A stretch of 64,000 nucleotides of DNA from an uncultured Candidatus Saccharibacteria bacterium (GTDB lineage Bacteria > Patescibacteriota > Minisyncoccia > Phycocordibacterales > UBA2100). Numbering within the stretch: position 1 is the first letter of the stretch; each line of letters opens with the position of its first letter. Under the pieces are notes generated by a model. It ran no database searches, was not told the origin of the DNA, and saw only the letters and a list, made by a program, of their open reading frames with translations. Location of the stretch: contig CAZPQI010000001.1 in assembly GCA_964589005.1 (NCBI GenBank), positions 67,675 through 131,674 of the forward strand, given 5' to 3'. Below, piece by piece: positions 4,754 through 31,595 of the stretch. A program made the translations under genes and the position numbers.

Positions 4754-4914
4754 ATGTCTGGCAAGTTTATCAGAAAACGTGACTAAACAAAACATTGACG
4801 TCCAGAACACTAGTGATACGCTGTAATAAATCAAGAACCATAAAGAGTCTCAAGGTGTGCATATAAACTTTGTATTCGCACCCTGCGGCTCCCTGTGGAT
4901 TGGTGCAAAAAAAA

Positions 4915-5011
4915 CTTCGAATGAACAGGGGAAGTCGCGAACGCCAGATCTCATTCGAAGTTAACGAGAACGGTCTTGGACATATGTAAGTATGCCCAAG
5001 ACCACTTTTTT
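4915..5011 (+). ncRNA. candidate structured small RNA / orphan plus-strand terminator between two minus-strand genes
   Basis: Two hairpins. The first is cttcgaatga...tcattcgaag, a 10-bp stem with a 26-nt loop. The second is ggtcttgg...ccaagacc, followed by ac+TTTTTT. Both flanking genes are on the minus strand, so the structure is unexplained by them. No conserved SRP, tmRNA or RNase P motif was recognised. Confidence 0.25.
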
Positions 5012-16654: not shown

Positions 16655-16774
16655 TACTTTCTATTATATCACGTTGAAAAAACACTTTTCTCGTGTAGAA
16701 TACGGCTCAGTTCTTTCCAAAGTTATATAGATTTTTTCGCTCCGCGGTAGCTCAGTGGTAGAGCAATCGACTGT

Positions 16775-17026
16775 CGAAGGCAGCCTTTGGTAGTAATATC
16801 AAAGTGAAGAACGAGGTGAATTGACTGGAAACCCTAACGTAAAGGCGAGGGCAATCAGCAGCCAAGCTTAATTGAAGGTTCAGAGACTATTCCGAAAGGA
16901 AGTACTATCCATTGTAATTATTTTGCAACTGGACGGGAAGCGCCTCGCATCCTAATCCGATCACGTCAGTGATTTAGGATGGATGATGATATAGTCCACC
17001 CCTTTTGGAAACAATTGGAAAAGGTG
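16775..17026 (+). mobile_element. putative group I intron (approx 252 nt) in the tRNA-Asn anticodon loop
   Basis: The 5' exon ends in U and the intron ends in G. An internal guide GCAG can pair with exon CUGU to form P1. GGAAACCCUAACG, CCAAGCUU and AGAGACUA match elements I recall from small bacterial tRNA group I introns of the Azoarcus tRNA-Ile / cyanobacterial tRNA-Leu type. A GACGGG...AUAGUCC P7-like pairing is present. The size fits that class. Confidence 0.6.
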
Positions 17027-17046
17027 TAATCGATTGGCCATAGGTT

Positions 17047-17064
17047 CGAATCCTATCCGCGGAG
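17047..17064 (+). repeat. direct repeat copy A (tRNA 3' end gaatcctatccgcggagc)
   Basis: An identical 18-mer recurs at 17445-17462. The pair flank the HNH ORF. Confidence 0.75.
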
Positions 17065-17102
17065 CGAAGTAATCTATACTTAAAGAGTGGTAGACTTAAT
17101 AG

Positions 17103-17435
17103 ATGTCTACCACTAAGAAACGAAAAGAAAAACGTACGTACGCCGATCGTCGTGAGTACATGATAAAGGCAGTCGCTAAACGACGCAGAAAGTTACGAAC
17201 TATGGCTTTAGAGCATGGAGGTGGTAAGTGTACGATTTGTGGGTATAAGAAATGCACTAGAGCGCTCACTTTTCATCACCTGGATCCATCTAAGAAAAAG
17301 TTCGGATTATCTGCCAGAGGGATAACTCGCTCATGGGAAAAAACTAAAGCAGAGTTAGAAAAATGTGTTTTGCTATGTATGAACTGCCACATGGAAATAC
17401 ATGATGGAGTTACTAAAGTTCCAAAGAAAAGGTAA
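17103..17435 (+). CDS. HNH endonuclease
   Basis: 110 aa with CxxC...HHLDP...N...CxxCH, a His-Me finger. Lies immediately 3' of the intron-containing tRNA, bracketed by duplicated tRNA 3'-end sequence. Confidence 0.8.
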   Translation: MSTTKKRKEKRTYADRREYMIKAVAKRRRKLRTMALEHGGGKCTICGYKKCTRALTFHHLDPSKKKFGLSARGITRSWEKTKAELEKCVLLCMNCHMEIHDGVTKVPKKR

Positions 17436-17444
17436 TTTTACGTT

Positions 17445-17462
17445 GAATCCTATCCGCGGAGC
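17445..17462 (+). repeat. direct repeat copy B (partial tRNA 3' end)
   Basis: gaatcctatccgcggagc preceded by gtt. One base of the tRNA T-loop (c) is missing. Looks like an att-site-style duplication. Confidence 0.75.
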
Positions 17463-17489
17463 CATCGACATGCAAAAATATTTTTCAAT

Positions 17490-17517
17490 CCATATTTAAT
17501 TACGTAATTAAATATGG
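17490..17517. promoter_or_regulatory. 28-bp perfect palindrome ccatatttaattacgtaattaaatatgg, with a second aattacgtaatt immediately after
   Basis: Lies about 35 bp upstream of the AbrB-like ORF. The TTACGTAA core is present twice. Operator candidate. Confidence 0.5.
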
Positions 17518-17551
17518 AATAAATTACGTAATTCTGCTAAAATCAAAAATA

Positions 17552-17728
17552 ATGGGACGACGCAAACTAAGTGACAAAAACATACGAAAACTAAGTAAAA
17601 TTGGTGGCAAAAGCATCGGTGTCACGATTCCTATTGAAATGGTGCGTAAATTAGGATGGAGAAGTAAGCAAAAGGTTGTTGTAGAAGAAAGAGGCAAGAC
17701 CATTGTCATCAAAGATTGGAAAAAATAA
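17552..17728 (+). CDS. AbrB/MazE/SpoVT-like small DNA-binding protein (58 aa; below ORF-track cutoff)
   Basis: MGRRKLSDKNIRKLSKIGGKSIGVTIPIEMVRKLGWRSKQKVVVEERGKTIVIKDWKK. The pattern (K.G.s..vtIP.e....lg...g..v.v...g..ivI) matches the swapped-hairpin AbrB/MazE fold. Confidence 0.45.
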   Translation: MGRRKLSDKNIRKLSKIGGKSIGVTIPIEMVRKLGWRSKQKVVVEERGKTIVIKDWKK

Positions 17729-17777
17729 AAATCTTAAATTTTTAGAACAAAGGCTTCTAAACCCTTTTTAGATTTTT

Positions 17778-18173
17778 CTATAAAATTTCTTTGTATTCTA
17801 TATAGTTAGTTTGAATCATTTTCTTCCACCAGACAGTCTCGTTATTACCTCTAATGTCATTCTTACAATAAACTAACAATATTTTAACTTCTTTTTTTGT
17901 TTTGTATTGAGCAACAATACATCTATTCCCAGAGGCTTTTGCGGATTCACTTGGTAAAATTTTAAATTCGCACTTATAGATGACAATGTCACTATCCAAA
18001 TCAGAAATAGAACTAGTTACACTCCGATCAATCATTAAATCAAACTTTCTAAGCATCAGAATAAAAGCTGACCACGGAGTGTTAAAAGAACTTTTATATT
18101 TTTTGCGCAAACTCTTTAAGTATAATTTTTCAGCAACACTTTCTGTAGAGACATCGTAATAATTAGTAGACAT
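17778..18173 (-). CDS. hypothetical 131-aa protein, candidate toxin partner of the Panacea-domain protein
   Basis: Overlaps the upstream HTH-Panacea gene by 11 nt, so translational coupling is likely. A weak RelE/ParE-like C-terminal pattern (NRCIVAQYKTKKEVKILLVYCKND). No confident family assignment. Confidence 0.4.
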   Translation of the reverse strand: MSTNYYDVSTESVAEKLYLKSLRKKYKSSFNTPWSAFILMLRKFDLMIDRSVTSSISDLDSDIVIYKCEFKILPSESAKASGNRCIVAQYKTKKEVKILLVYCKNDIRGNNETVWWKKMIQTNYIEYKEIL

Positions 18174-18858
18174 GCTCTGGGTCTTCTTGGGTTATAAGTT
18201 CGTACGGAATAATTGACCCTTTATCGGCAAAAATATATGGTATCTGCTCATGAGTAAACCTTACAATATCCTGCGTATTTGATTTTTTCCAATTATCCCA
18301 GACGTCGTGCATAAGTTTCTCCTCTGCTTTAGAAATAGAGTTTAAAGAATTTTTTTCTGAACCTCGAGTTTCAGAAAAAGAATATGTATCTTTTCCTTCG
18401 TCACTTTTGTGACTTACCACGATACTTCCGTCATCTTCTAATTCTTGAATTGCACGAAAATACGCATCCGGAACTGGGCCGAATTCAATTTTACGATATG
18501 GCATTCCACTTATGCTCTCTTGATGCTTGTAGTACCAAGCGAAGTCAGCAAGATACAAAAGTTTAGCTAGTTTAGTTTTCTTCAATACCTGCCCACTTTT
18601 TTTTGCATCGCGTAAATACGATAGAATCATCTGCTTATACTTTTCATAGTTAGGTGCTTGATTAGATAGAAGCTCTTGAATAGAGATACCAAACATGTCA
18701 GATAGCTTTTGTGCCTCCAGTAAACTAAGTTCTTTTACACCTTTTTCTAAAGAAACGTAAGATGGTCTAGAGATGCCAATCCTCTCAGCAACTTCACCTT
18801 GCGAAAACTTACGGTCTAAACGAAGACTCTTTATAAATTTAAAATAAGTATTACTCAT
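18163..18858 (-). CDS. XRE-HTH + Panacea (DUF4065/SocA-like) domain protein, putative PanA antitoxin/regulator
   Basis: N-terminal HTH (SQGEVAERIGISRPSYVSLEKG). The C-terminal region carries KLAKLLYLADF...GMPY...FGPVPDAY, the conserved core of DUF4065. Confidence 0.65.
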   Translation of the reverse strand: MSNTYFKFIKSLRLDRKFSQGEVAERIGISRPSYVSLEKGVKELSLLEAQKLSDMFGISIQELLSNQAPNYEKYKQMILSYLRDAKKSGQVLKKTKLAKLLYLADFAWYYKHQESISGMPYRKIEFGPVPDAYFRAIQELEDDGSIVVSHKSDEGKDTYSFSETRGSEKNSLNSISKAEEKLMHDVWDNWKKSNTQDIVRFTHEQIPYIFADKGSIIPYELITQEDPEHVY

Positions 18859-19002
18859 AGAAACAGTATACTACATACAAATTATGCTACGTCAACATCT
18901 TATCCACAGGATGTCACCTTTTTGACATCCTAAACGTTACTTGGTAAAATACAAACCACTTCGAGTGCAACGGAGGATTATTAGTTAAGTTTCTCAAAAT
19001 AT

Positions 19003-19146
19003 ATGGGACACAAGAAAGTAACAAGCAAGAGTATGTCTACCAAGGCAAGCAAGGCTTTGCGTAGCGGAAGCACAGGAAAAACTACGAAGTCACTTGCTGG
19101 CTCTACTCTATCGCAAAGCAAGGGGAAACACAGGAAAGGTAAATAG
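19003..19146 (+). CDS. possible 47-aa Lys/Ser/Thr-rich basic peptide (low confidence)
   Basis: MGHKKVTSKSMSTKASKALRSGSTGKTTKSLAGSTLSQSKGKHRKGK, followed by a hairpin (aaaaccga..tcggtttt) plus a T-rich tail. No clear RBS. Confidence 0.2.
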   Translation: MGHKKVTSKSMSTKASKALRSGSTGKTTKSLAGSTLSQSKGKHRKGK

Positions 19147-19289
19147 TAGAAAACCGACCTAAAGGATCGGTTTTCTACAAAAGTTTTATTTCAAGGTCGT
19201 GCGGAAGGGTGACTTTGTTTTTATATACTAGCAATGAATTAGATGTTTAACTAAGAAAATCGTAGGACAAATGTTAATTTGTTTTAAAA

Positions 19290-20453
19290 TTACCGATTTC
19301 CTTTTGCGCGATTGTGTGTTTTACACAACATCTGGCAATTTTTTAGTGAAGTTGCACCACCCTTGCTCCATGCGGCTACGTGATCAGCGTCCATATCACT
19401 CAAGCTCCATACCTTATCCTTGTTAACATCGTGTCCAATAGCACAATGCTGGCAATTTGATTTCCCTTTGGTTTTGGCTGTCTTTGTTTGCGAGGCATAG
19501 ACAGATTTTTTTGTGGCTTCATCAAAAACTCGAACATCAAGAAGTTTTGTATCTTTTTCACCACCTAAAATATATTCAAATACTCCCCTATGATTTCTAA
19601 CATAAGGGTCTGCATATAATTTGTGAACTGTATCAGATAATTTTTTTGGGTTATATCCTTTCTTATGATGTTCTTCATAGAGCCTTCCCCACTCCAAACC
19701 TTTCATTTCACTTTCTATATCGATAAAAGTTTTAGAAACCCAATCAATTACACTACTAAAGTACGTTTCTAATTCACTGATATTAGCATCTTGTCTATGT
19801 TTACTCATATAATCTCCAACTTTTCCACGACTTACCCAATCAAGTGCTTTTGCCAAAAAATCTTGTCTATTAACACTACCCTTGATGTACGCACCCCATT
19901 TCAGAACATTAGAATTTCGTGAATTACTAAACTCTTCTTTTGCAAGTGTTACAAATGGTCCAGAATATATCGCATTGAGAAGTTCTTGTTCGTTTAATGG
20001 CACTCCTGCAATATTAATTGTCTTAAACCACTCTTTTATTTCACTTTCCTTTCCCATGCATTCATAAATTGTTAATTTAGTTTGCATTATTTCTTCTTGT
20101 TTGTCTTTTGAAATACCACTGAAATATTGCTCCATGCCGTTTTCATCTTTAACGGCAAATTTATTAGTTACATATCGTCCAAAGCTAGTGATTCTTTGTT
20201 GTCCATCCAAGACCTCCAAATTATCTTTTCCAACTTTATTGAAATAAATCAAACCTATTGGATAACCTTTCAGAATTGACTCAATTACAGCCACATCTTT
20301 TTTCCCATCAGCATAAATATAATTCCTTTGATACTCTGGCTGAATTTTTAATTTCCCATTTATCCCGAAAAGTCCTTTTCCCTCTAACTCATTATAAACA
20401 AATCCTTCGCAAATCTCTTTTACAGTGTATGTTGTTTTTAGTATTGTTTTCAT
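19290..20453 (-). CDS. DUF262 (ParB-like NTPase, DGQQR motif) + C-terminal HNH nuclease; restriction/defence endonuclease candidate
   Basis: [12 protein letters not shown] is the DUF262 signature. The C-terminus carries CQHC...[12 protein letters not shown]...[15 protein letters not shown], an HNH motif. Its start lies 1 nt after the stop of the upstream methyltransferase. Confidence 0.8.
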
Positions 20454-20454
20454 T

Positions 20455-21618
20455 TTATTTTTTGTGTTTGATTATAATTCTTGAGTATGGAACAACAGCT
20501 TTATCACCAACCATAATATAAAATCTCCATACAGAAGAATGACCTGGAAGAGACTTGTCTATTTCTTTTGGTATAGGAGTTATTCCCAATTTTTTTCCTA
20601 ATGCCCCAATTCCAATTCCAATTATTTCAAATTGTTCTGGGCAATATTTATCCATAAATGATACTGGCACACCCATTTCTCCCTTATAATCATTTGGAAT
20701 CGCTCTTACCATTGGGATATCAATCGCGTCATAATTAGCATATTTTGGATAATAATCTACTTCATACTTCTTTTTTAAATTATTTAATAGAGTAGTATTA
20801 AATTTAAGATTGTCTTTTTCAGACATTAACTGCAGGGGATGGTGCCTAACTCCATGGTCAATATTTGTATACCACCTTATACCATTTACTCTCCAATAAA
20901 ATTTACCATCTTTTATATATGCATTCTTTTCGTCAGACATTTTTTGTGAATCATATAGTTCTTTTGGAGCAATAAAATATGCTGCTCCCCCATTAAAGTA
21001 TGTAGCACCAAGCCACATAATATTATCTTTAATTAAAGGAAAGATTTCTTTATTCGCAATTGTGTTCAAATTCCCTATAATTACAAATTTTTTATTTGCT
21101 TCCAGTATCCAAGCTAAAAACTCTCTAAATAAACTAAATGGAGGATTTGTAATAATTATATCTGCTTCATCTCTTATCTTTTTTACTTCGCTGCTTCTGA
21201 AGTCTCCATCCCCTTTCATGTATTTCCAGTCTAAATCATCTATATCTATCTTATTATCTCCTGTTTTATCTTTTGTAAGAGTAAAAATCTTCCCTTTTAT
21301 TCTGGTTTTCTTTTTGTCAAACCTTGAACTTTTTTCTTCAAAAAGTGTTGTTTCGTATCCCTCCTTATATTTTTTACTTTCTACAGCATAACTTGTAGAA
21401 ACCAATTTTTTTAATTTAAATTTCTCAAAATTCTGTGCAAAGTATTTAGTGAAGTCGCTCCATTCAGGGTCATCGCAAGGTAAGAGAATAACTTTATCTT
21501 TAAAGACATTGGGGTTATATTCAAGATAAGCATTGATCTCTTTTTCAATGTCTTTATATTGTGTATAAAACTCATCGTTTTTTGCATTCTTCGCATCTGC
21601 CAAATTACTTTGTGCCAT
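20455..21618 (-). CDS. DNA amino-methyltransferase (N6-adenine or N4-cytosine), NPPF motif IV
   Basis: [11 protein letters not shown] is the catalytic motif IV of amino-MTases. The N-terminal DEFYT region is present. GC is very low, about 28-30% in sampled stretches. Confidence 0.8.
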
Positions 21619-21688
21619 AATGATTTCAAAACAATCGGGACTAAACCGATTTTATTATTACCAATACTACTCTTTTTGTACAAAAAAG

Positions 21689-22123
21689 CTAAGTTTTGCT
21701 TGAAAAATGCCGTGCAATGAGTTCATGTAAATGCTCCGGATTCTTTACCAAATCAACCAACACTAAACTCTCGGAGACTCCGTTGCGTTCGAGTTCATCT
21801 ACTTCACCCTGTGACGGATCATTATCGAACCAGACGAAGGGTTTTGAAAAGTCGATAGCTTCGGTTTTGTTTTCGCTCCACGTTGTTGGTTTGTATGCGA
21901 GAACATACTGAAAAAGTTCAGACGGGAATATTTTTTGCAGGTGTCGTTGAGCGTTAGTCTCGTCTCCGTGGCGACAGTGTGTAGTAAGCCAATACACATT
22001 GTGGAGCGAGAGAGCTTCCAGAAATTCTTCCAAATGCGCAGCTGGTTTATTGTAATTCGCCAAATCCTCGTGGATTATTGTTCCGTCTATATCTAGGTAG
22101 ATATTTGTTTCTTTGTTTAACAC
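21689..22123 (-). CDS. HAD-superfamily hydrolase (DxDxT motif; nucleotidase/phosphatase-like)
   Basis: IYLDIDGTII matches HAD motif I. 144 aa. Confidence 0.55.
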   Translation of the reverse strand: MLNKETNIYLDIDGTIIHEDLANYNKPAAHLEEFLEALSLHNVYWLTTHCRHGDETNAQRHLQKIFPSELFQYVLAYKPTTWSENKTEAIDFSKPFVWFDNDPSQGEVDELERNGVSESLVLVDLVKNPEHLHELIARHFSSKT

Positions 22124-22162
22124 ACCTTCATTCTAACAGTTAATATTTGCTACACTGGGCAC

Positions 22163-23934: not shown

Positions 23935-24333
23935 ATGAAGAAGAGAAAATCATTACCTAAAAAGCTTCAACTCGAAATATATAATCGAGATTACTGGACT
24001 TGCCAGTATTGTGGAGATCCTGTGTTTTATGTTCAAACCTTGAAACTATTAGAAAAACTCAGTCCAGACTGCGGATACTATCACCCTAATGGTAAATCAG
24101 AGAAAATGCTAAAGCTGTTTTTTAATAAATGGGCTAGTATTGACCACGTAAAACCATTTACAAAATACGGTGAAGACTCACTTGAAAATCTCGTAACAGC
24201 TTGTTGGGAATGCAATCTTAGAATGGGCAACAAAGATGATAAGCAAGGCAAAAGAAAGCCCAGAAAGATCAAAAAGCATCAAAAAACTAAATCTTGGGAT
24301 GGTCTTTACTCCCTTTATGAGAAGCTAAGATAA
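23935..24333 (+). CDS. HNH endonuclease
   Basis: CQYCGD...IDHVKP...N...CWECN. Confidence 0.8.
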   Translation: MKKRKSLPKKLQLEIYNRDYWTCQYCGDPVFYVQTLKLLEKLSPDCGYYHPNGKSEKMLKLFFNKWASIDHVKPFTKYGEDSLENLVTACWECNLRMGNKDDKQGKRKPRKIKKHQKTKSWDGLYSLYEKLR

Positions 24334-24383
24334 AATGAAGAATCTTAGACTCAAAGTGCTATACTAAACGAACAATTGAATAA

Positions 24384-24526
24384 ATTATCAAGAAAGATGT
24401 GAAGGGACTAGCCTTATGACCATCTTAGCAACCTGTCTCTTCGTCCAGATAAGGTGCTCCATCTAGCCTGTATAGGAAAGATAACAATGCATCAGCATCT
24501 TACCCTTCACAGGAAAGATGTTTTTT
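24384..24526 (+). promoter_or_regulatory. SAM-I (S-box) riboswitch with terminator in the metK leader
   Basis: UUAUCAAGAAAGAUGUGAAGGGACUAGCC...GCAACC...AGAUAAGGUGCUCC...AUCUAGCC...GGAAAGAUAA matches the SAM-I consensus blocks (YUCUUAUCAAGAG..GGAGGGACUGGCC...GCAACC...AAGGUGCUAA..CCAGC..GAUAAGA). It is followed by the hairpin catctt...aagatg plus TTTTTT just before the metK start. Confidence 0.8.
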
Positions 24527-24539
24527 AGTGTTAAAAGAT

Positions 24540-25478
24540 ATGAAGAAAACAGCAGAATTCGTAAGTCCAAAGCATCCAGATAAAATATGCGACTATATAG
24601 CGGATATTATATTAGATGCTTACTTGGGTGATGATAAAGATAGCAGAGTGGCCATCGAGGTTATGGGTGGCCACAATCTTGTTACCGTAAACGGAGAAGT
24701 AACGAGCAAGACAACCATAGATATTGAGGGGCTTATAAAAAACATAGTAGGCTCAGATTACAAAGTGATATCTAATGTCGTAGCACAAAGTAGCGAAATA
24801 GCGCGCGGTGTAGACACTGGAGGTGCAGGTGACCAAGGAATAATGAAGGGTTACGCAACAAGCGAGACAGAAAGCCTAATGCCATTAGAGTACGAACTTG
24901 CTCGAAACTTATGTATGAAAATTTTTGAGGTTTATCCTTATGACGGCAAGACTCAAATTACAATCGATGGAGAAAAAGTTACGTCGGTAATTGCTAGTTT
25001 TCAAAATTCTAAAAGTGATGAGCTGTTATCATTAGTAAAAAGTATTATTCAGTCCGAAGAGTACTTCATAAACCAATCAGGAGAGTGGTCGCAAGGTGGA
25101 TTTGATGCAGATACTGGGCTCTCGGGACGAAAACTTATTGTAGATAATTATGGCCCTGAAGTGACCATAGGAGGTGGCTCCTTTTCTGGAAAAGATTACA
25201 CAAAAGTGGACCGCTCGGGAGCATATATGGCTCGAAAAATATCTGTTGACTACCTAAAGAAGCGCTCAGCCAAGGAAGTACATACGAAGTTAGCATATGC
25301 GATAGGAAAACCTGAACCAGTTATGGCAACTGCTATTATAGACGGAAAAGAAATTCCAATAGAGGGGTACAATTTAACACCTGCTGGGATAAGGAAATTA
25401 CTGAAACTAGATAAGCTAAAGTTGTCGACAACCTCTAACTGGGGCCATTTTGGTAGAGGTTTTGAATGGGACGTTTAG
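24540..25478 (+). CDS. metK: S-adenosylmethionine synthetase (compact)
   Basis: Motifs KHPDKICDYIAD, GAGDQG and GGGSFSGKD. The first ATG lies 4 codons inside the tracked ORF, which is GTG-initiated. Confidence 0.93.
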   Translation: MKKTAEFVSPKHPDKICDYIADIILDAYLGDDKDSRVAIEVMGGHNLVTVNGEVTSKTTIDIEGLIKNIVGSDYKVISNVVAQSSEIARGVDTGGAGDQGIMKGYATSETESLMPLEYELARNLCMKIFEVYPYDGKTQITIDGEKVTSVIASFQNSKSDELLSLVKSIIQSEEYFINQSGEWSQGGFDADTGLSGRKLIVDNYGPEVTIGGGSFSGKDYTKVDRSGAYMARKISVDYLKKRSAKEVHTKLAYAIGKPEPVMATAIIDGKEIPIEGYNLTPAGIRKLLKLDKLKLSTTSNWGHFGRGFEWDV

Positions 25479-28251: not shown

Positions 28252-28261
28252 ATTTTTACCT

Positions 28262-28301
28262 CAAGCAAAAAGGAGCTCGCGTCGCGAGCTCCTTTTTGCT
28301 T
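28262..28301 (+). terminator. strong rho-independent terminator (caagcaaaaaggagctcgcg tc gcgagctcctttttgcttg)
   Basis: 19-bp perfect stem. Confidence 0.8.
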
Positions 28302-28329
28302 GACATATGCACCCTAATGCTATTTAATA
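28300..28329 (+). promoter_or_regulatory. sigma70-like promoter (TTGACA..17-18..TTAATA) with a roughly 175-nt 5'-UTR upstream of csp
   Basis: The -35/-10 elements were read by eye. A long 5'-UTR is characteristic of cold-shock genes. Confidence 0.4.
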
Positions 28330-28705: not shown

Positions 28706-28875
28706 CTAGAGCATATTTGAAAACTTCATTCCGGCTCTGTTTTCACGTATTTCCCCCGACTACTCGTAAGAAAATTTTTGAAATATCTCGATATTCCTCT
28801 AACTTTCTTGCTTCGTATCGAACGAAATACGATAAAACATCCTCGAAAGCAAGTTTTCAAACAAGCTCTCACAAC

Positions 28876-28907
28876 AAAAACCCCGCGGGCTAGCCCGCGG
28901 GGTTTTT
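28876..28907. terminator. bidirectional terminator (aaaaaccccgcgggctagcccgcggggttttt)
   Basis: Perfect GC hairpin flanked by A5 and T5. Confidence 0.8.
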
Positions 28908-28966
28908 GTTTTTCTACTCCGAAGATCCACACTAGTACACACGTGCAAATACTTTATACTGTTGAG

Positions 28967-29602: not shown

Positions 29603-31408
29603 TTACTTCTGATTATTCTTTTGGTTGCTCGTTGCCATTTTTCTGTCGGTTTCGGTGAGGTACTGCTTACGTAAGCGAATATCACTCGGCGTTACCTCCA
29701 AATACTCATCTGCGCCCATATACCCCATCGCTTTTTCTAATGTTAACTCTAGTGGCGGTGCAAGCTTTATATTTTCATCCGTCCCTGACGCACGCATATT
29801 TGTAAGTTGCTTGCCTTTTGTAGGGTTTACCATCATATCTTCTCCTTTAGAAGTATTACCGACTACCATTCCTTCATATACTTCAGTAGTGGGAGCGATA
29901 TACAATACTCCTCTCTCTTGCAAATTTGCCAATGAAAAACCAAGTGCTTTCCCATTTGCCATTGAAACCATCGAACCAAGTTCTGTTTTCTGAATTTCTC
30001 CAGCGTATGGTCCAAAGTGACTAAATATAGATGTCATAATTCCCTCTCCTTTTGTGTCGATGATCATTTCGTTTCTATACCCTAAGAGTCCTCGCGTAGG
30101 AACTTCTAACGTAATACGCACCTCTCCGTGCTCTTGCACCATACCTGTCATAACACCACGACGCTTTCCCAATTTTTCAATAACCGCTCCAGAGAATTCG
30201 TCTGGGACCAAAATGCTCACATCTTCATACGGTTCCAATTTTTTACCATCTTTTTCTTTAAAAATAACTTCAGGTTGCGAAACAGAAAGCTCGAATCCTT
30301 CACGACGCATATTTTCTATTAGAACTGCAAGATGCAATTCCCCTCGTCCGTACACCTTCATTCGTGCGCCCTCTAGAAAGTCTACACGAAGCCCGACATT
30401 TACTTCTAATTCTTTTTCTAAACGCTCTCGAATCTGTCGTCCAGTTACATACTTTCCTACGCGTCCTGCAAATGGGGAACTATTTACAAACATAAAGAAG
30501 GAGATCGTGGGCTCATCCACTGCAATAGCGGGAAGTGCTTCGCCTCCGGCAACTTGCAAAAGTGTGTGACCGATAAAAATTTCTGGGATACCCGCAATCA
30601 TCACAATGTCACCTGCGCTAGCCTCTTTAACTTCTTTTTTGGTCATACCTTCAAACGTAAAAAGTTTTGCTACTTTCCCCTTGAACTCATTGCCCGTAGC
30701 ATCTTTAAGAAAAATGTCTTGCTTCTCTTTAATAGTTCCTTCATAAATGCGCGCCACACCCATACGTCCGAGAAAATTATCATGCGCAAGGTTGAATACT
30801 TGGCTAGACAGAGCCTTGTCTTTAAGGTTATCTCCCGAAGCTGCGGGGATTTTTTCTAGTATTGTGTCGAGTATTGGAGTTAAATCCACGGCGTTGTCTT
30901 CCATTTTACGCTTTGCCACACCATCGCGCCCAATAGCGTATAGCGTCGGAAAATCCAATTGTTCGTCAGTCGCTCCAAGATCTAAAAAGAGTTCGTATAC
31001 AGCCTCCTGAGCTTTATCCACATCCGCTGCTGGTTTATCAATCTTGTTTAAAATAAGTATCGGCTTGAGTCCAAGCTCGAGCGATTTCTTCAATACAAAT
31101 TTTGTTTGTGGCATTGGACCTTCGGCTGCGTCTACTACCAATAAAACAGAATCGATCGAACGCAGTACACGTTCAACTTCTGAACCAAAATCGGCGTGCC
31201 CAGGCGTATCGAGGATATTTATCTTGGTGTCTTTATAGAATACGCTAGTATTTTTTGCATAGATTGTAATACCCCGTTCCATTTCCAGTGCATCAGAATC
31301 CATAGATACTCCTTCTTTTCCAGCACCAGTTTGCGCAAGAAGAGCATCAGTAAGTGTTGTCTTACCGTGGTCTACGTGGGCTATGATTGCTATGTTTCGT
31401 ATTTCCAT
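29603..31408 (-). CDS. typA: translational GTPase TypA/BipA
   Basis: AHVDHGKTT, DTPGH and NKIDK G-motifs with EF-G-like domains. The start is taken at MEIRNIAIIAHVDHGKT. Confidence 0.95.
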   Translation of the reverse strand: MEIRNIAIIAHVDHGKTTLTDALLAQTGAGKEGVSMDSDALEMERGITIYAKNTSVFYKDTKINILDTPGHADFGSEVERVLRSIDSVLLVVDAAEGPMPQTKFVLKKSLELGLKPILILNKIDKPAADVDKAQEAVYELFLDLGATDEQLDFPTLYAIGRDGVAKRKMEDNAVDLTPILDTILEKIPAASGDNLKDKALSSQVFNLAHDNFLGRMGVARIYEGTIKEKQDIFLKDATGNEFKGKVAKLFTFEGMTKKEVKEASAGDIVMIAGIPEIFIGHTLLQVAGGEALPAIAVDEPTISFFMFVNSSPFAGRVGKYVTGRQIRERLEKELEVNVGLRVDFLEGARMKVYGRGELHLAVLIENMRREGFELSVSQPEVIFKEKDGKKLEPYEDVSILVPDEFSGAVIEKLGKRRGVMTGMVQEHGEVRITLEVPTRGLLGYRNEMIIDTKGEGIMTSIFSHFGPYAGEIQKTELGSMVSMANGKALGFSLANLQERGVLYIAPTTEVYEGMVVGNTSKGEDMMVNPTKGKQLTNMRASGTDENIKLAPPLELTLEKAMGYMGADEYLEVTPSDIRLRKQYLTETDRKMATSNQKNNQK

Positions 31409-31595
31409 ATGTATAACTTTCATAACTACGTATATTTTGAATGAAGAAATAAACGTAGTGATTATTCTGAATTTATGTCTCGATTTCTCCCCGCTTTTCT
31501 TAGGGAGAAATTGCTAGACCACAATTACCACTAACAATCCCTCACGCCTCGAACTGTACGTAGTTCTGCAACTTCTACACTAGTTGCATTTAAAC

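Follow-up and report, generated by a model that had tools for sequence, protein, structure and literature searches.

How does the gene for an endonuclease whose family normally inhabits a tRNA intron come to stand outside that intron, followed by a second copy of the 3′ end of the very same tRNA? The question is raised by a locus in a 64,000-nt stretch of DNA from an uncultured Candidatus Saccharibacteria bacterium (contig CAZPQI010000001.1; the whole stretch is called the window below), in which a tRNA-Asn(GUU) gene interrupted by a group I intron is followed by a free-standing gene for an HNH endonuclease and then by an exact 18-nt repeat of the tRNA 3′ end. Two known kinds of arrangement come together here, an intron-family endonuclease in the layout of collaborative homing and a tRNA-linked repeat of a gene's 3′ end; what is new is that the setting is a tRNA gene on a bacterial chromosome, and that relics of the tRNA exons are present. 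On balance, the probable explanation is that an HNH gene of the intronic family moved outside the intron and came to lie amid the remains of a tRNA-Asn gene, with no integrase involved, and that it now acts in collaborative homing.

The tRNA gene, its intron and a second copy of its 3′ end

The features that carry the argument are the following:

16741–16774, plus strand: exon 1 of tRNA-Asn(GUU), positions 1–35, from ARAGORN on the joined exons
16775–17026, plus strand: group I intron of 252 nt at 35/36, without an open reading frame (ORF); Rfam RF00028, 77.9 bits, E 4.5e-18
17027–17065, plus strand: exon 2 of tRNA-Asn, positions 36–73 plus C74; CCA only partly encoded (the gene reads GCG)
17048–17065, plus strand: copy 1 of the 18-mer, G57 to C74 of the functional tRNA
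17103–17435, plus strand: free-standing gene for a predicted HNH homing endonuclease of 110 amino acids, 37 nt past the tRNA; Pfam and PHROG
17439–17464, plus strand: tRNA-Asn 3′-exon relic, made up of TACGTT-, copy 2 of the 18-mer (17445–17462) and then CA, which completes CCA

The 18-mer GAATCCTATCCGCGGAGC is present in two exact copies in the window, both on the plus strand and 397 nt apart from start to start, and a search of all 64 kb that allowed up to 3 mismatches found no further copy. None of 100 shuffled controls gave two matches (0.02 expected). Copy 1 comprises the 3′ half of the T-loop, the 3′ strands of the T-stem and the acceptor stem, the discriminator G73 and one base more; copy 2 begins 9 nt past the HNH stop codon. 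Because two independent metagenome assemblies of the same organism (L087 and L088, 98.6–99.9% identical) show the identical arrangement, an assembly artefact is excluded, and the 18-bp duplication of the tRNA 3′ end claimed in a first-pass annotation of this DNA is real. The L087 contig stops 10 nt past copy 2, which could reflect strain heterogeneity at this boundary.

The identity of the tRNA is not apparent from standard gene finding. ARAGORN without intron search makes no call at the locus, and with intron search (-i) it reports a tRNA-Thr(UGU) with a 252-nt intron at position 33; when the sequence is joined at the junction 16774/17027, the same program calls tRNA-Asn(gtt). The discriminator G73, an Asn identity element, fits tRNA-Asn here. 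According to a recent survey, Patescibacteria tRNA-Asn(GUU) genes bear IA group I introns at 35/36, ARAGORN and tFind mis-call such genes as Thr(UGU) at 33/34 through a 2-nt shift of the boundary, and tRNA-Asn introns of this class splice in vitro (Nakagawa et al. 2026, PMC13011429). The splice-site features in the window are a U that ends the 5′ exon and a G that ends the intron. On the grounds of the published 2-nt shift and of G73, we reject the call of tRNA-Thr(UGU) with an intron at 33/34; the locus is a tRNA-Asn(GUU) gene with a group I intron at 35/36, whose splicing here is predicted.

Resemblance between the two copies extends beyond the 18-mer. Aligned with exon 2, the extended copy 2 matches at 24/25 bases with one gap, for a score of 38 against a shuffle maximum of 20. 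In a local alignment the match upstream of the 18-mer is degenerate (window TACGTT-GAATCC... against tRNA TAGGTTCGAATCC...), and at the other end copy 2 reads GGAGC-CA, with the full CCA, where the functional gene reads GGAGC-GA; a CCA is encoded in the tRNA genes of some relatives (L131, L134). Because of the T-stem extension and the CCA, copy 2 is best read as the displaced or decayed end of a tRNA-Asn 3′ exon, and at the level of sequence these features establish it as a genuine tRNA-Asn 3′-exon relic.

Similar remains accompany free-standing HNH genes elsewhere. In L048, the relic directly after the free-standing HNH gene corresponds to nt 16–44 of exon 2, with 21/30 bases identical; in L098, the HNH stop codon itself lies inside an exon-2 relic (nt 16–37); and in L045, where the HNH gene stands before the tRNA, that gene is itself preceded by an exon-1 relic comprising acceptor strand and D-arm. 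Together with the window, these relics indicate that what surrounds the free-standing copies is left over from a second or displaced tRNA-Asn gene. Relics of the intron core were also sought after free-standing HNH genes, and none scored above shuffles; matches to GAAAAA..CAAGG in L003 and L004 were discarded as candidates, being inside the next coding gene and no better than shuffles, and the idea of a GTTGAA microhomology in the window is only a suggestion.

As a separate observation, a GC-rich hairpin (CCCGCCCG...CGGGCGGG) splits the exon-1 relic of L045 (approximately 4885–4955), with the acceptor strand on one side and the D-arm on the other.

An intron-family endonuclease outside the intron

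The protein encoded between the two copies matches the Pfam HNH family (PF01844) narrowly, at 21.5 bits against a cut-off of 21.4, and the PHROG families of phage HNH endonucleases strongly (E 2.8e-27). It has more than 625 homologues at 60–85% identity, and the family alignment shows 36 invariant positions, which include two CxxC pairs, HH, N and H (among them the residues C43, C46, H58, H59, C92, N94, C95, H96 and H100). An AlphaFold 2 (AF2) model has a predicted local distance difference test (pLDDT) score of 83. Foldseek matches of this model are weak (E 0.04 or above, none at or below 0.001), and HNH nucleases predominate among them, including Cap5, Cas9 HNH domains, T4 endonuclease VII and Gme HNH; at the sequence level, neither NCBIfam nor the PDB, the latter searched with the family profile, yielded a match. 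Compared with the orthologues of its clade, the HNH gene has a nonsynonymous divergence (dN) of 0.11–0.19 at saturated synonymous sites (dS), which argues that the gene is functional and under strong purifying selection and that the clade is old. The ORF is an intact HNH homing-endonuclease gene of the intron's own family, outside the intron, with homing activity predicted from its sequence.

A further feature shared with the family lies at the start of the gene:

17086–17114, plus strand: hairpin that sequesters the HNH start codon, GTGGTAGAC / GTCTACCAC, with a 10-bp stem

Its arms (17086–17095 and 17105–17114) pair perfectly in the window by virtue of a compensatory T>G / A>C pair, and the form GTGGTA(T/G)AC-loop-GT(A/C)TACCAC is common to intronic and free-standing copies. 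The 5′ arm resembles an extended -10 element (TGGTATACT in relatives). We set aside the reading of TGGTATACT as a promoter only, since the window's TAGACT is the compensatory change that perfects the hairpin; because the departure from the relatives has this effect, it is the RNA structure that is conserved. The hairpin recalls the translational control of phage intron endonucleases.

Related loci were gathered by a family-profile scan over one genome per species, which gave 80 loci, with metagenome loci and exact-protein look-ups added; a metagenome scan with the single protein found few close relatives (best 76%). The HNH ORF lies inside the intron of the same tRNA at 73 of 105 related Patescibacteria loci, which bears out the earlier suggestion of a free-standing homing endonuclease linked to the adjacent group I intron. 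Such ORF-bearing introns measure 530–716 nt, with some 35 nt of intron ahead of the ORF and, past its stop codon, some 240 nt of intron core and then exon 2. This layout matches the four HNH-bearing tRNA-Asn introns, at 35/36, reported for complete genomes in the survey cited above (PMC13011429).

At about 20% of the loci, a free-standing HNH gene is combined with an ORF-less intron (approximately 200–350 nt). The free-standing layouts comprise 11 with the gene downstream on the same strand (including the window), 6 with an inverted tRNA adjoining or upstream, and 4 with the HNH gene before the tRNA. The window's ORF, outside the 35/36 intron as it is, is orthologous to the intronic proteins: its intronic homologues are 61–76% identical to it, and those of L133, L135 and L137, which occupy the same syntenic locus, are 75–76% identical. 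Indeed, this one locus (def-fmt-hpf-tRNA) has an intronic HNH gene in L133, L135, L136 and L137 (the contig of the last starts within the intron) and a free-standing one in the window, L003, L004, L086 and L131; L089 has too little flank (35 nt) to show synteny. Linkage of the HNH gene to a tRNA gene with an ORF-less intron is found in the window, in L001, L003, L004, L086, L089 and L131, and at approximately 14 other loci. A nuclease gene that adjoins a gene with an ORF-less intron, in a linkage that is conserved, is the arrangement of collaborative homing, to judge by gene order. In a neighbour-joining tree, free-standing and intronic forms interleave, suggesting several independent free-standing lineages. 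In every relative, a different set of genes follows the HNH gene.

Origin and working of the arrangement

The reading that we favour, collaborative homing from within tRNA remains, can be put together as follows. The HNH cassette, consisting of the start-codon hairpin and the ORF, would sit in the remains of a second or displaced copy of tRNA-Asn. A rearrangement, by tandem duplication and reciprocal decay or by endonuclease-triggered repair, would have put a complete, splicing-competent 3′ end (copy 1) before the cassette and left the older, CCA-bearing end (copy 2) behind. The nuclease would then cut tRNA-Asn alleles that lack the HNH gene, and double-strand-break repair would copy the intron, exon 2 and the HNH gene together. 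The trailing tRNA fragment would act as the downstream homology arm where the flanking genes differ, and each homing event would restore it from the tRNA end of the recipient. Its use as a homology arm would explain why the downstream genes differ in every genome, and its renewal would explain why the tail is still identical to the tRNA in an arrangement that is old. This renewal of the 18-mer is the account that we prefer for the tail, and it is speculative; a possible alternative role is that of a tRNA-like 3′-end processing signal on read-through transcripts, of the kind suggested for the tRNA-linked repeats of E. coli.

Several points weigh against this reading. A stretch of 18–25 nt is short for a homology arm. 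Six close relatives have no recognisable relic, so that decay or loss must be assumed, and the 18-mer is perfect in an old arrangement, which calls for renewal, gene conversion or selection to account for it. Among the loci gathered there was no HNH-less allele, with no dedicated search in this species; such an allele would here read ATAGGTTCGAATCCTATCCGCGGAGCCATCGACATG, the intact T-arm joined to the flank of copy 2. The neighbour-joining tree covers only about 105 amino acids. Finally, exact copies of tRNA 3′ ends are common as the end of a separate element, described in the next section, and a link of copy 2 to that element keeps some residual probability.

Element X in related loci

Copies of a tRNA 3′ end downstream of the gene are not confined to the window. 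At 26 of 83 loci, a further copy of the 18-mer of the tRNA in question is found on the same strand no more than 500 nt downstream, compared with 0/83 in upstream controls. Ten of these 26 downstream copies are exact, and 20 occur at loci with an intronic HNH gene (20/65 such loci). Because such copies are common where the HNH gene is intronic, an 18-mer repeat alone is no mark of HNH insertion.

Most of the downstream copies are the 3′ end of a structured element of approximately 135 nt, which we call X. The order is tRNA, terminator-like hairpin and then X, which opens with the acceptor 5′ strand and closes with the T-stem and acceptor 3′ strands of the tRNA, its last 18 nt being G57–C74 of that tRNA. 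In the hairpins of X, 21/34 pairs show compensatory change in at least one sequence. A covariance model of X (R1; 135 positions, 34 bp) finds 35 copies in 97 related loci, sometimes in tandem, for example:

L012, 5629–5765: X
L093, 1277–1412 and 1456–1590: X, twice
L077, 4402–4539, minus strand: X
L036, 4341–4482, minus strand: X
L019, 748–884, minus strand: X

In L019, X follows a tRNA-Ala and copies the end of that tRNA; in L086, L050 and L098, X lies between the tRNA and the HNH gene. The ends of X are often followed by CA. Searches of X against Rfam (four relatives, E up to 1) and with ARAGORN gave no match, and we accordingly rejected the idea that X is a transfer-messenger RNA (tmRNA), a tRNA or a member of a known RNA family. 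Model R1 finds no X in the window, the only hit being a spurious 13.8-bit hairpin match at 28878–28903. The copy 2 phenomenon and X may nonetheless be related.

Alternative explanations

We consider unlikely, if worth spelling out, the possibility that the HNH gene and the trailing 3′-exon fragment form a self-contained homing cassette, with X a rider on, or a by-product of, the same breaks. The nuclease would in that case cut tRNA-Asn in the variable-loop/T-arm region; the tRNA body would serve as the left arm and the 18–25-nt tail, renewed at each event, as the right arm, and the cassette would spread between genomes whatever lies downstream. X, a mimic of the tRNA top half whose end copies that of any tRNA upstream of it, would then be a non-autonomous rider or by-product. 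If true, this would give a mechanistic origin for tRNA-linked repeats, which have been unexplained in E. coli since 1978.

It is likewise doubtful that a lost X left copy 2 as its 3′ end, the HNH gene having replaced or split an X unit. The idea draws on the many loci at which X ends with the genome's own tRNA 18-mer (10 of them exact), on the contrast between downstream and upstream copies, on the three loci at which X lies between the tRNA and the HNH gene, and on the CA that often follows X. Against it, the sequence that immediately precedes copy 2 agrees with T-stem and T-loop of the tRNA (TAGGTTC) and not with the P4 hairpin plus AG of X; the T-stem 5′ strand and the variable loop, both absent from X, are represented in the relics of L048 and L098; and the covariance model finds no X in the window. 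Because the upstream bases are tRNA-like and the window holds no X, copy 2 does not appear to derive from X.

The first-pass annotation had proposed the classic signature of integration at a tRNA 3′ end, attL/attR, and in this form the 397-bp segment of spacer, HNH gene and one repeat would be an integrative element, either minimal or decayed. The tRNA 3′ segment is indeed directly repeated at the two ends, and the repeat spans the T-loop to the 3′ end, the classic sub-site of tRNA-targeting integrases. A low-GC island of defence genes starts right after copy 2, and tandem repeat-bounded units are present at this tRNA in L093 and L078. The island begins with a segment that is variable among relatives:

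17465–22150, no strand assigned: variable low-GC (0.31–0.37) segment with defence-type genes; relatives have unrelated genes here

Its genes are a MazE/AbrB-like gene with a perfect palindromic operator (17484–17523), a helix-turn-helix plus Panacea-domain gene with a small partner, a GmrSD-like DUF262-HNH gene and an EcoRI-type adenine methylase gene. Toxin–antitoxin and restriction-type genes occupy the 12 kb between the HNH gene and BipA (29603–31423, minus strand), at which synteny with relatives resumes.

Set against these features is the outcome of the searches for an integrase and its traces, which make such an origin distinctly improbable. Pfam scans of most ORFs of at least 90 amino acids and of several shorter ones between 17.4 and 32 kb found no tyrosine or serine recombinase, so that none is present among the ORFs tested in the interval 17.4–29.6 kb; no third att copy with up to 5 mismatches exists between 17.5 and 32 kb (best 6), including the far end of the island; and no k-mers of the tRNA of at least 10 nt were found elsewhere. 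We also looked for an empty site in related genomes, and saw none: six relatives (L001, L003, L004, L086, L089 and L131) have the HNH gene in the corresponding position behind this tRNA, and no second repeat that could be an attR, assemblies of the same strain are identical at the locus, and no occupied/empty polymorphism is seen among relatives. The HNH proteins of these relatives are 77–84% identical to that of the window (L131 is not in this comparison; its protein P0006 is 80% identical in a separate search). Since synonymous sites are saturated, the residence of the HNH gene at this site predates the diversification of the clade, and the minimal mobile HNH cassette that had also been suggested is, as a recent arrival, unsupported. 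Moreover, the family of the cargo gene normally inhabits the adjacent intron, and copy 2 extends upstream into tRNA sequence for which an att core has no need. Of the proposed insertion, the topology fits, with a regenerated tRNA 3′ end and the old end downstream; the integrase mechanism is unsupported.

Very unlikely, too, is a recent illegitimate recombination, by which an island from a related strain would have brought along a fragment of a tRNA-Asn 3′ end and been joined on after the HNH gene; the sequence expected directly after an intact tRNA-Asn and before the island would then be CATCGACATGCAAAAAT. Copy 2 does coincide exactly with the point at which conserved synteny ends and GC content drops, the L087 contig breaks just past it, and it has a CCA, as do the tRNA genes of L131 and L134. 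Yet the mazE module and its nearest relative, L138, are homologous only from approximately 17489 onwards, about 26 nt past copy 2; the operator is shared, and L138 has no tRNA fragment. The same observation led us to reject the arrival of copy 2 with the mazE-like module. Comparable relics after the HNH genes of L048 and L098, where the downstream genes are unrelated, also speak against such a joining. A chance match, finally, is already refuted by the shuffle controls for the 18-mer and for its extended alignment.

Other features of the window

The immediate surroundings of the tRNA gene contain three further features:

16674–16701, plus strand: promoter-like site, TTGAAA, 16 nt, TAGAAT, about 40 nt upstream of the tRNA; consensus match 10/12
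16726–16747, pairing with 17057–17078, plus strand: inverted repeat of 22 nt, 91% complementary, which extends the acceptor stem into leader and trailer
17066–17102, plus strand: spacer between tRNA and HNH gene, homologous to the spacers of L089 and L086, GAAGTAAT(C/T)TAT...

The promoter-like site is a consensus match only, not significant against shuffles. Complementarity of leader and trailer is also present in L003, L086 and L089. By comparison with L003, the whole block of tRNA, intron and these flanks is reversed with respect to the HNH gene in L001 and L002. No terminator-like site was found between the tRNA and the HNH gene (17066–17102). The neighbouring genes of the tRNA are priA, def, fmt, hpf and a DUF167 gene, and matches at the protein level indicate Paceibacteria.

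Farther downstream, a second small HNH ORF (23935–24333, 132 amino acids, Pfam HNH E 1.2e-10) was considered as a relative of the tRNA-linked HNH gene and rejected, its sequence being unrelated. An S-adenosylmethionine (SAM) riboswitch (RF00162, 49.7 bits) at 24382–24487 lies upstream of a shortened gene for S-adenosylmethionine synthetase (24528–25478). Two perfect palindromes, at 28261–28303 (21-nt arms, 1 nt apart) and 28873–28910 (abutting 19-nt arms), may be bidirectional terminators.

Relation to known systems

The closest comparison is with the HNH genes of Patescibacteria tRNA-Asn introns (PMC13011429), which share with the window the tRNA, the site and class of the intron and the HNH family. 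In contrast to those systems, the intron here is ORF-less, and the HNH gene lies 37 nt past the tRNA and is followed by a 3′-exon relic. Introns of this kind were scored there as endonuclease-less, and the sections consulted make no mention of free-standing copies.

The pathway of collaborative homing is reportedly the work of Bonocora and Shub, and cases other than the one cited below are cyanophage F-CphI with psbA, and nrdA. As in those systems, a free-standing nuclease gene adjoins a gene with an ORF-less group I intron, and both forms, intronic and free-standing, are found at one locus; unlike in phages, the setting is a tRNA gene on a bacterial chromosome, with exon relics, and it is known here from sequence data. 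A precedent for collaborative, or trans, homing is T4 mobE with I-TevIII, in which a free-standing nuclease lies beside an ORF-less or defunct intron (PMC2790892).

The tRNA-linked repeats of E. coli, reportedly also the subject of work by Egan and Landy in 1978 and by Rudd in 1999, offer a second comparison. These repeats lie downstream of tRNA and rRNA genes, end in 18–19 bp identical to the 3′ end of the gene, and have been proposed to be processing signals (Stenum et al. 2021, PMC8144298). The unit that follows the tRNA in the window likewise ends with an 18/18 match to the tRNA 3′ end (20/20 when compared with the mature CCA), and X, like the E. coli repeats, occurs directly downstream of tRNA genes in one to several units per locus. 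Unlike the E. coli case, there is no sequence homology, nor any Rfam match in the window (at the gathering threshold) or in four relatives; the window unit holds a protein gene and lacks the structured body found in relatives as X; and copy 2, to judge from its upstream extension, derives from a whole T-arm.

Integrative elements with tRNA att sites, of the class that uses the T-loop sub-site, resemble the window in a repeat that runs from T-loop to 3′ end and in a functional end that is regenerated as the old end is displaced. They differ in that here no integrase was found among the ORFs tested, no far-end repeat exists in the interval searched, no empty-site polymorphism is seen among the relatives, and the cargo is a single endonuclease of the intron family. 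In fungal mitochondria, as in atp6 of Allomyces, a GIY-YIG endonuclease ORF is reported to enter the host gene at its 3′ end and to bring a new 3′ end, with the displaced original downstream; the hybrid functional gene end, the nuclease gene and the displaced original end are all similar to the window, whereas the host gene there is protein-coding and the nuclease is of the GIY-YIG kind.

Implications for Patescibacteria introns

At one locus, across approximately 100 genomes, a single endonuclease family is found in four layouts: in the intron, after the tRNA, before it, and beside an inverted tRNA. The exon relics mark the rearrangements between them, and the series as a whole is relevant to the question of how homing-endonuclease genes get into introns and out of them. 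The recent view that most tRNA introns of Patescibacteria, having no endonuclease genes, are immobile has to be qualified as well, as some of them have a nuclease next door. The presence of X in Patescibacteria, in turn, could make the nature and origin of tRNA-linked repeats testable by comparative genomics.

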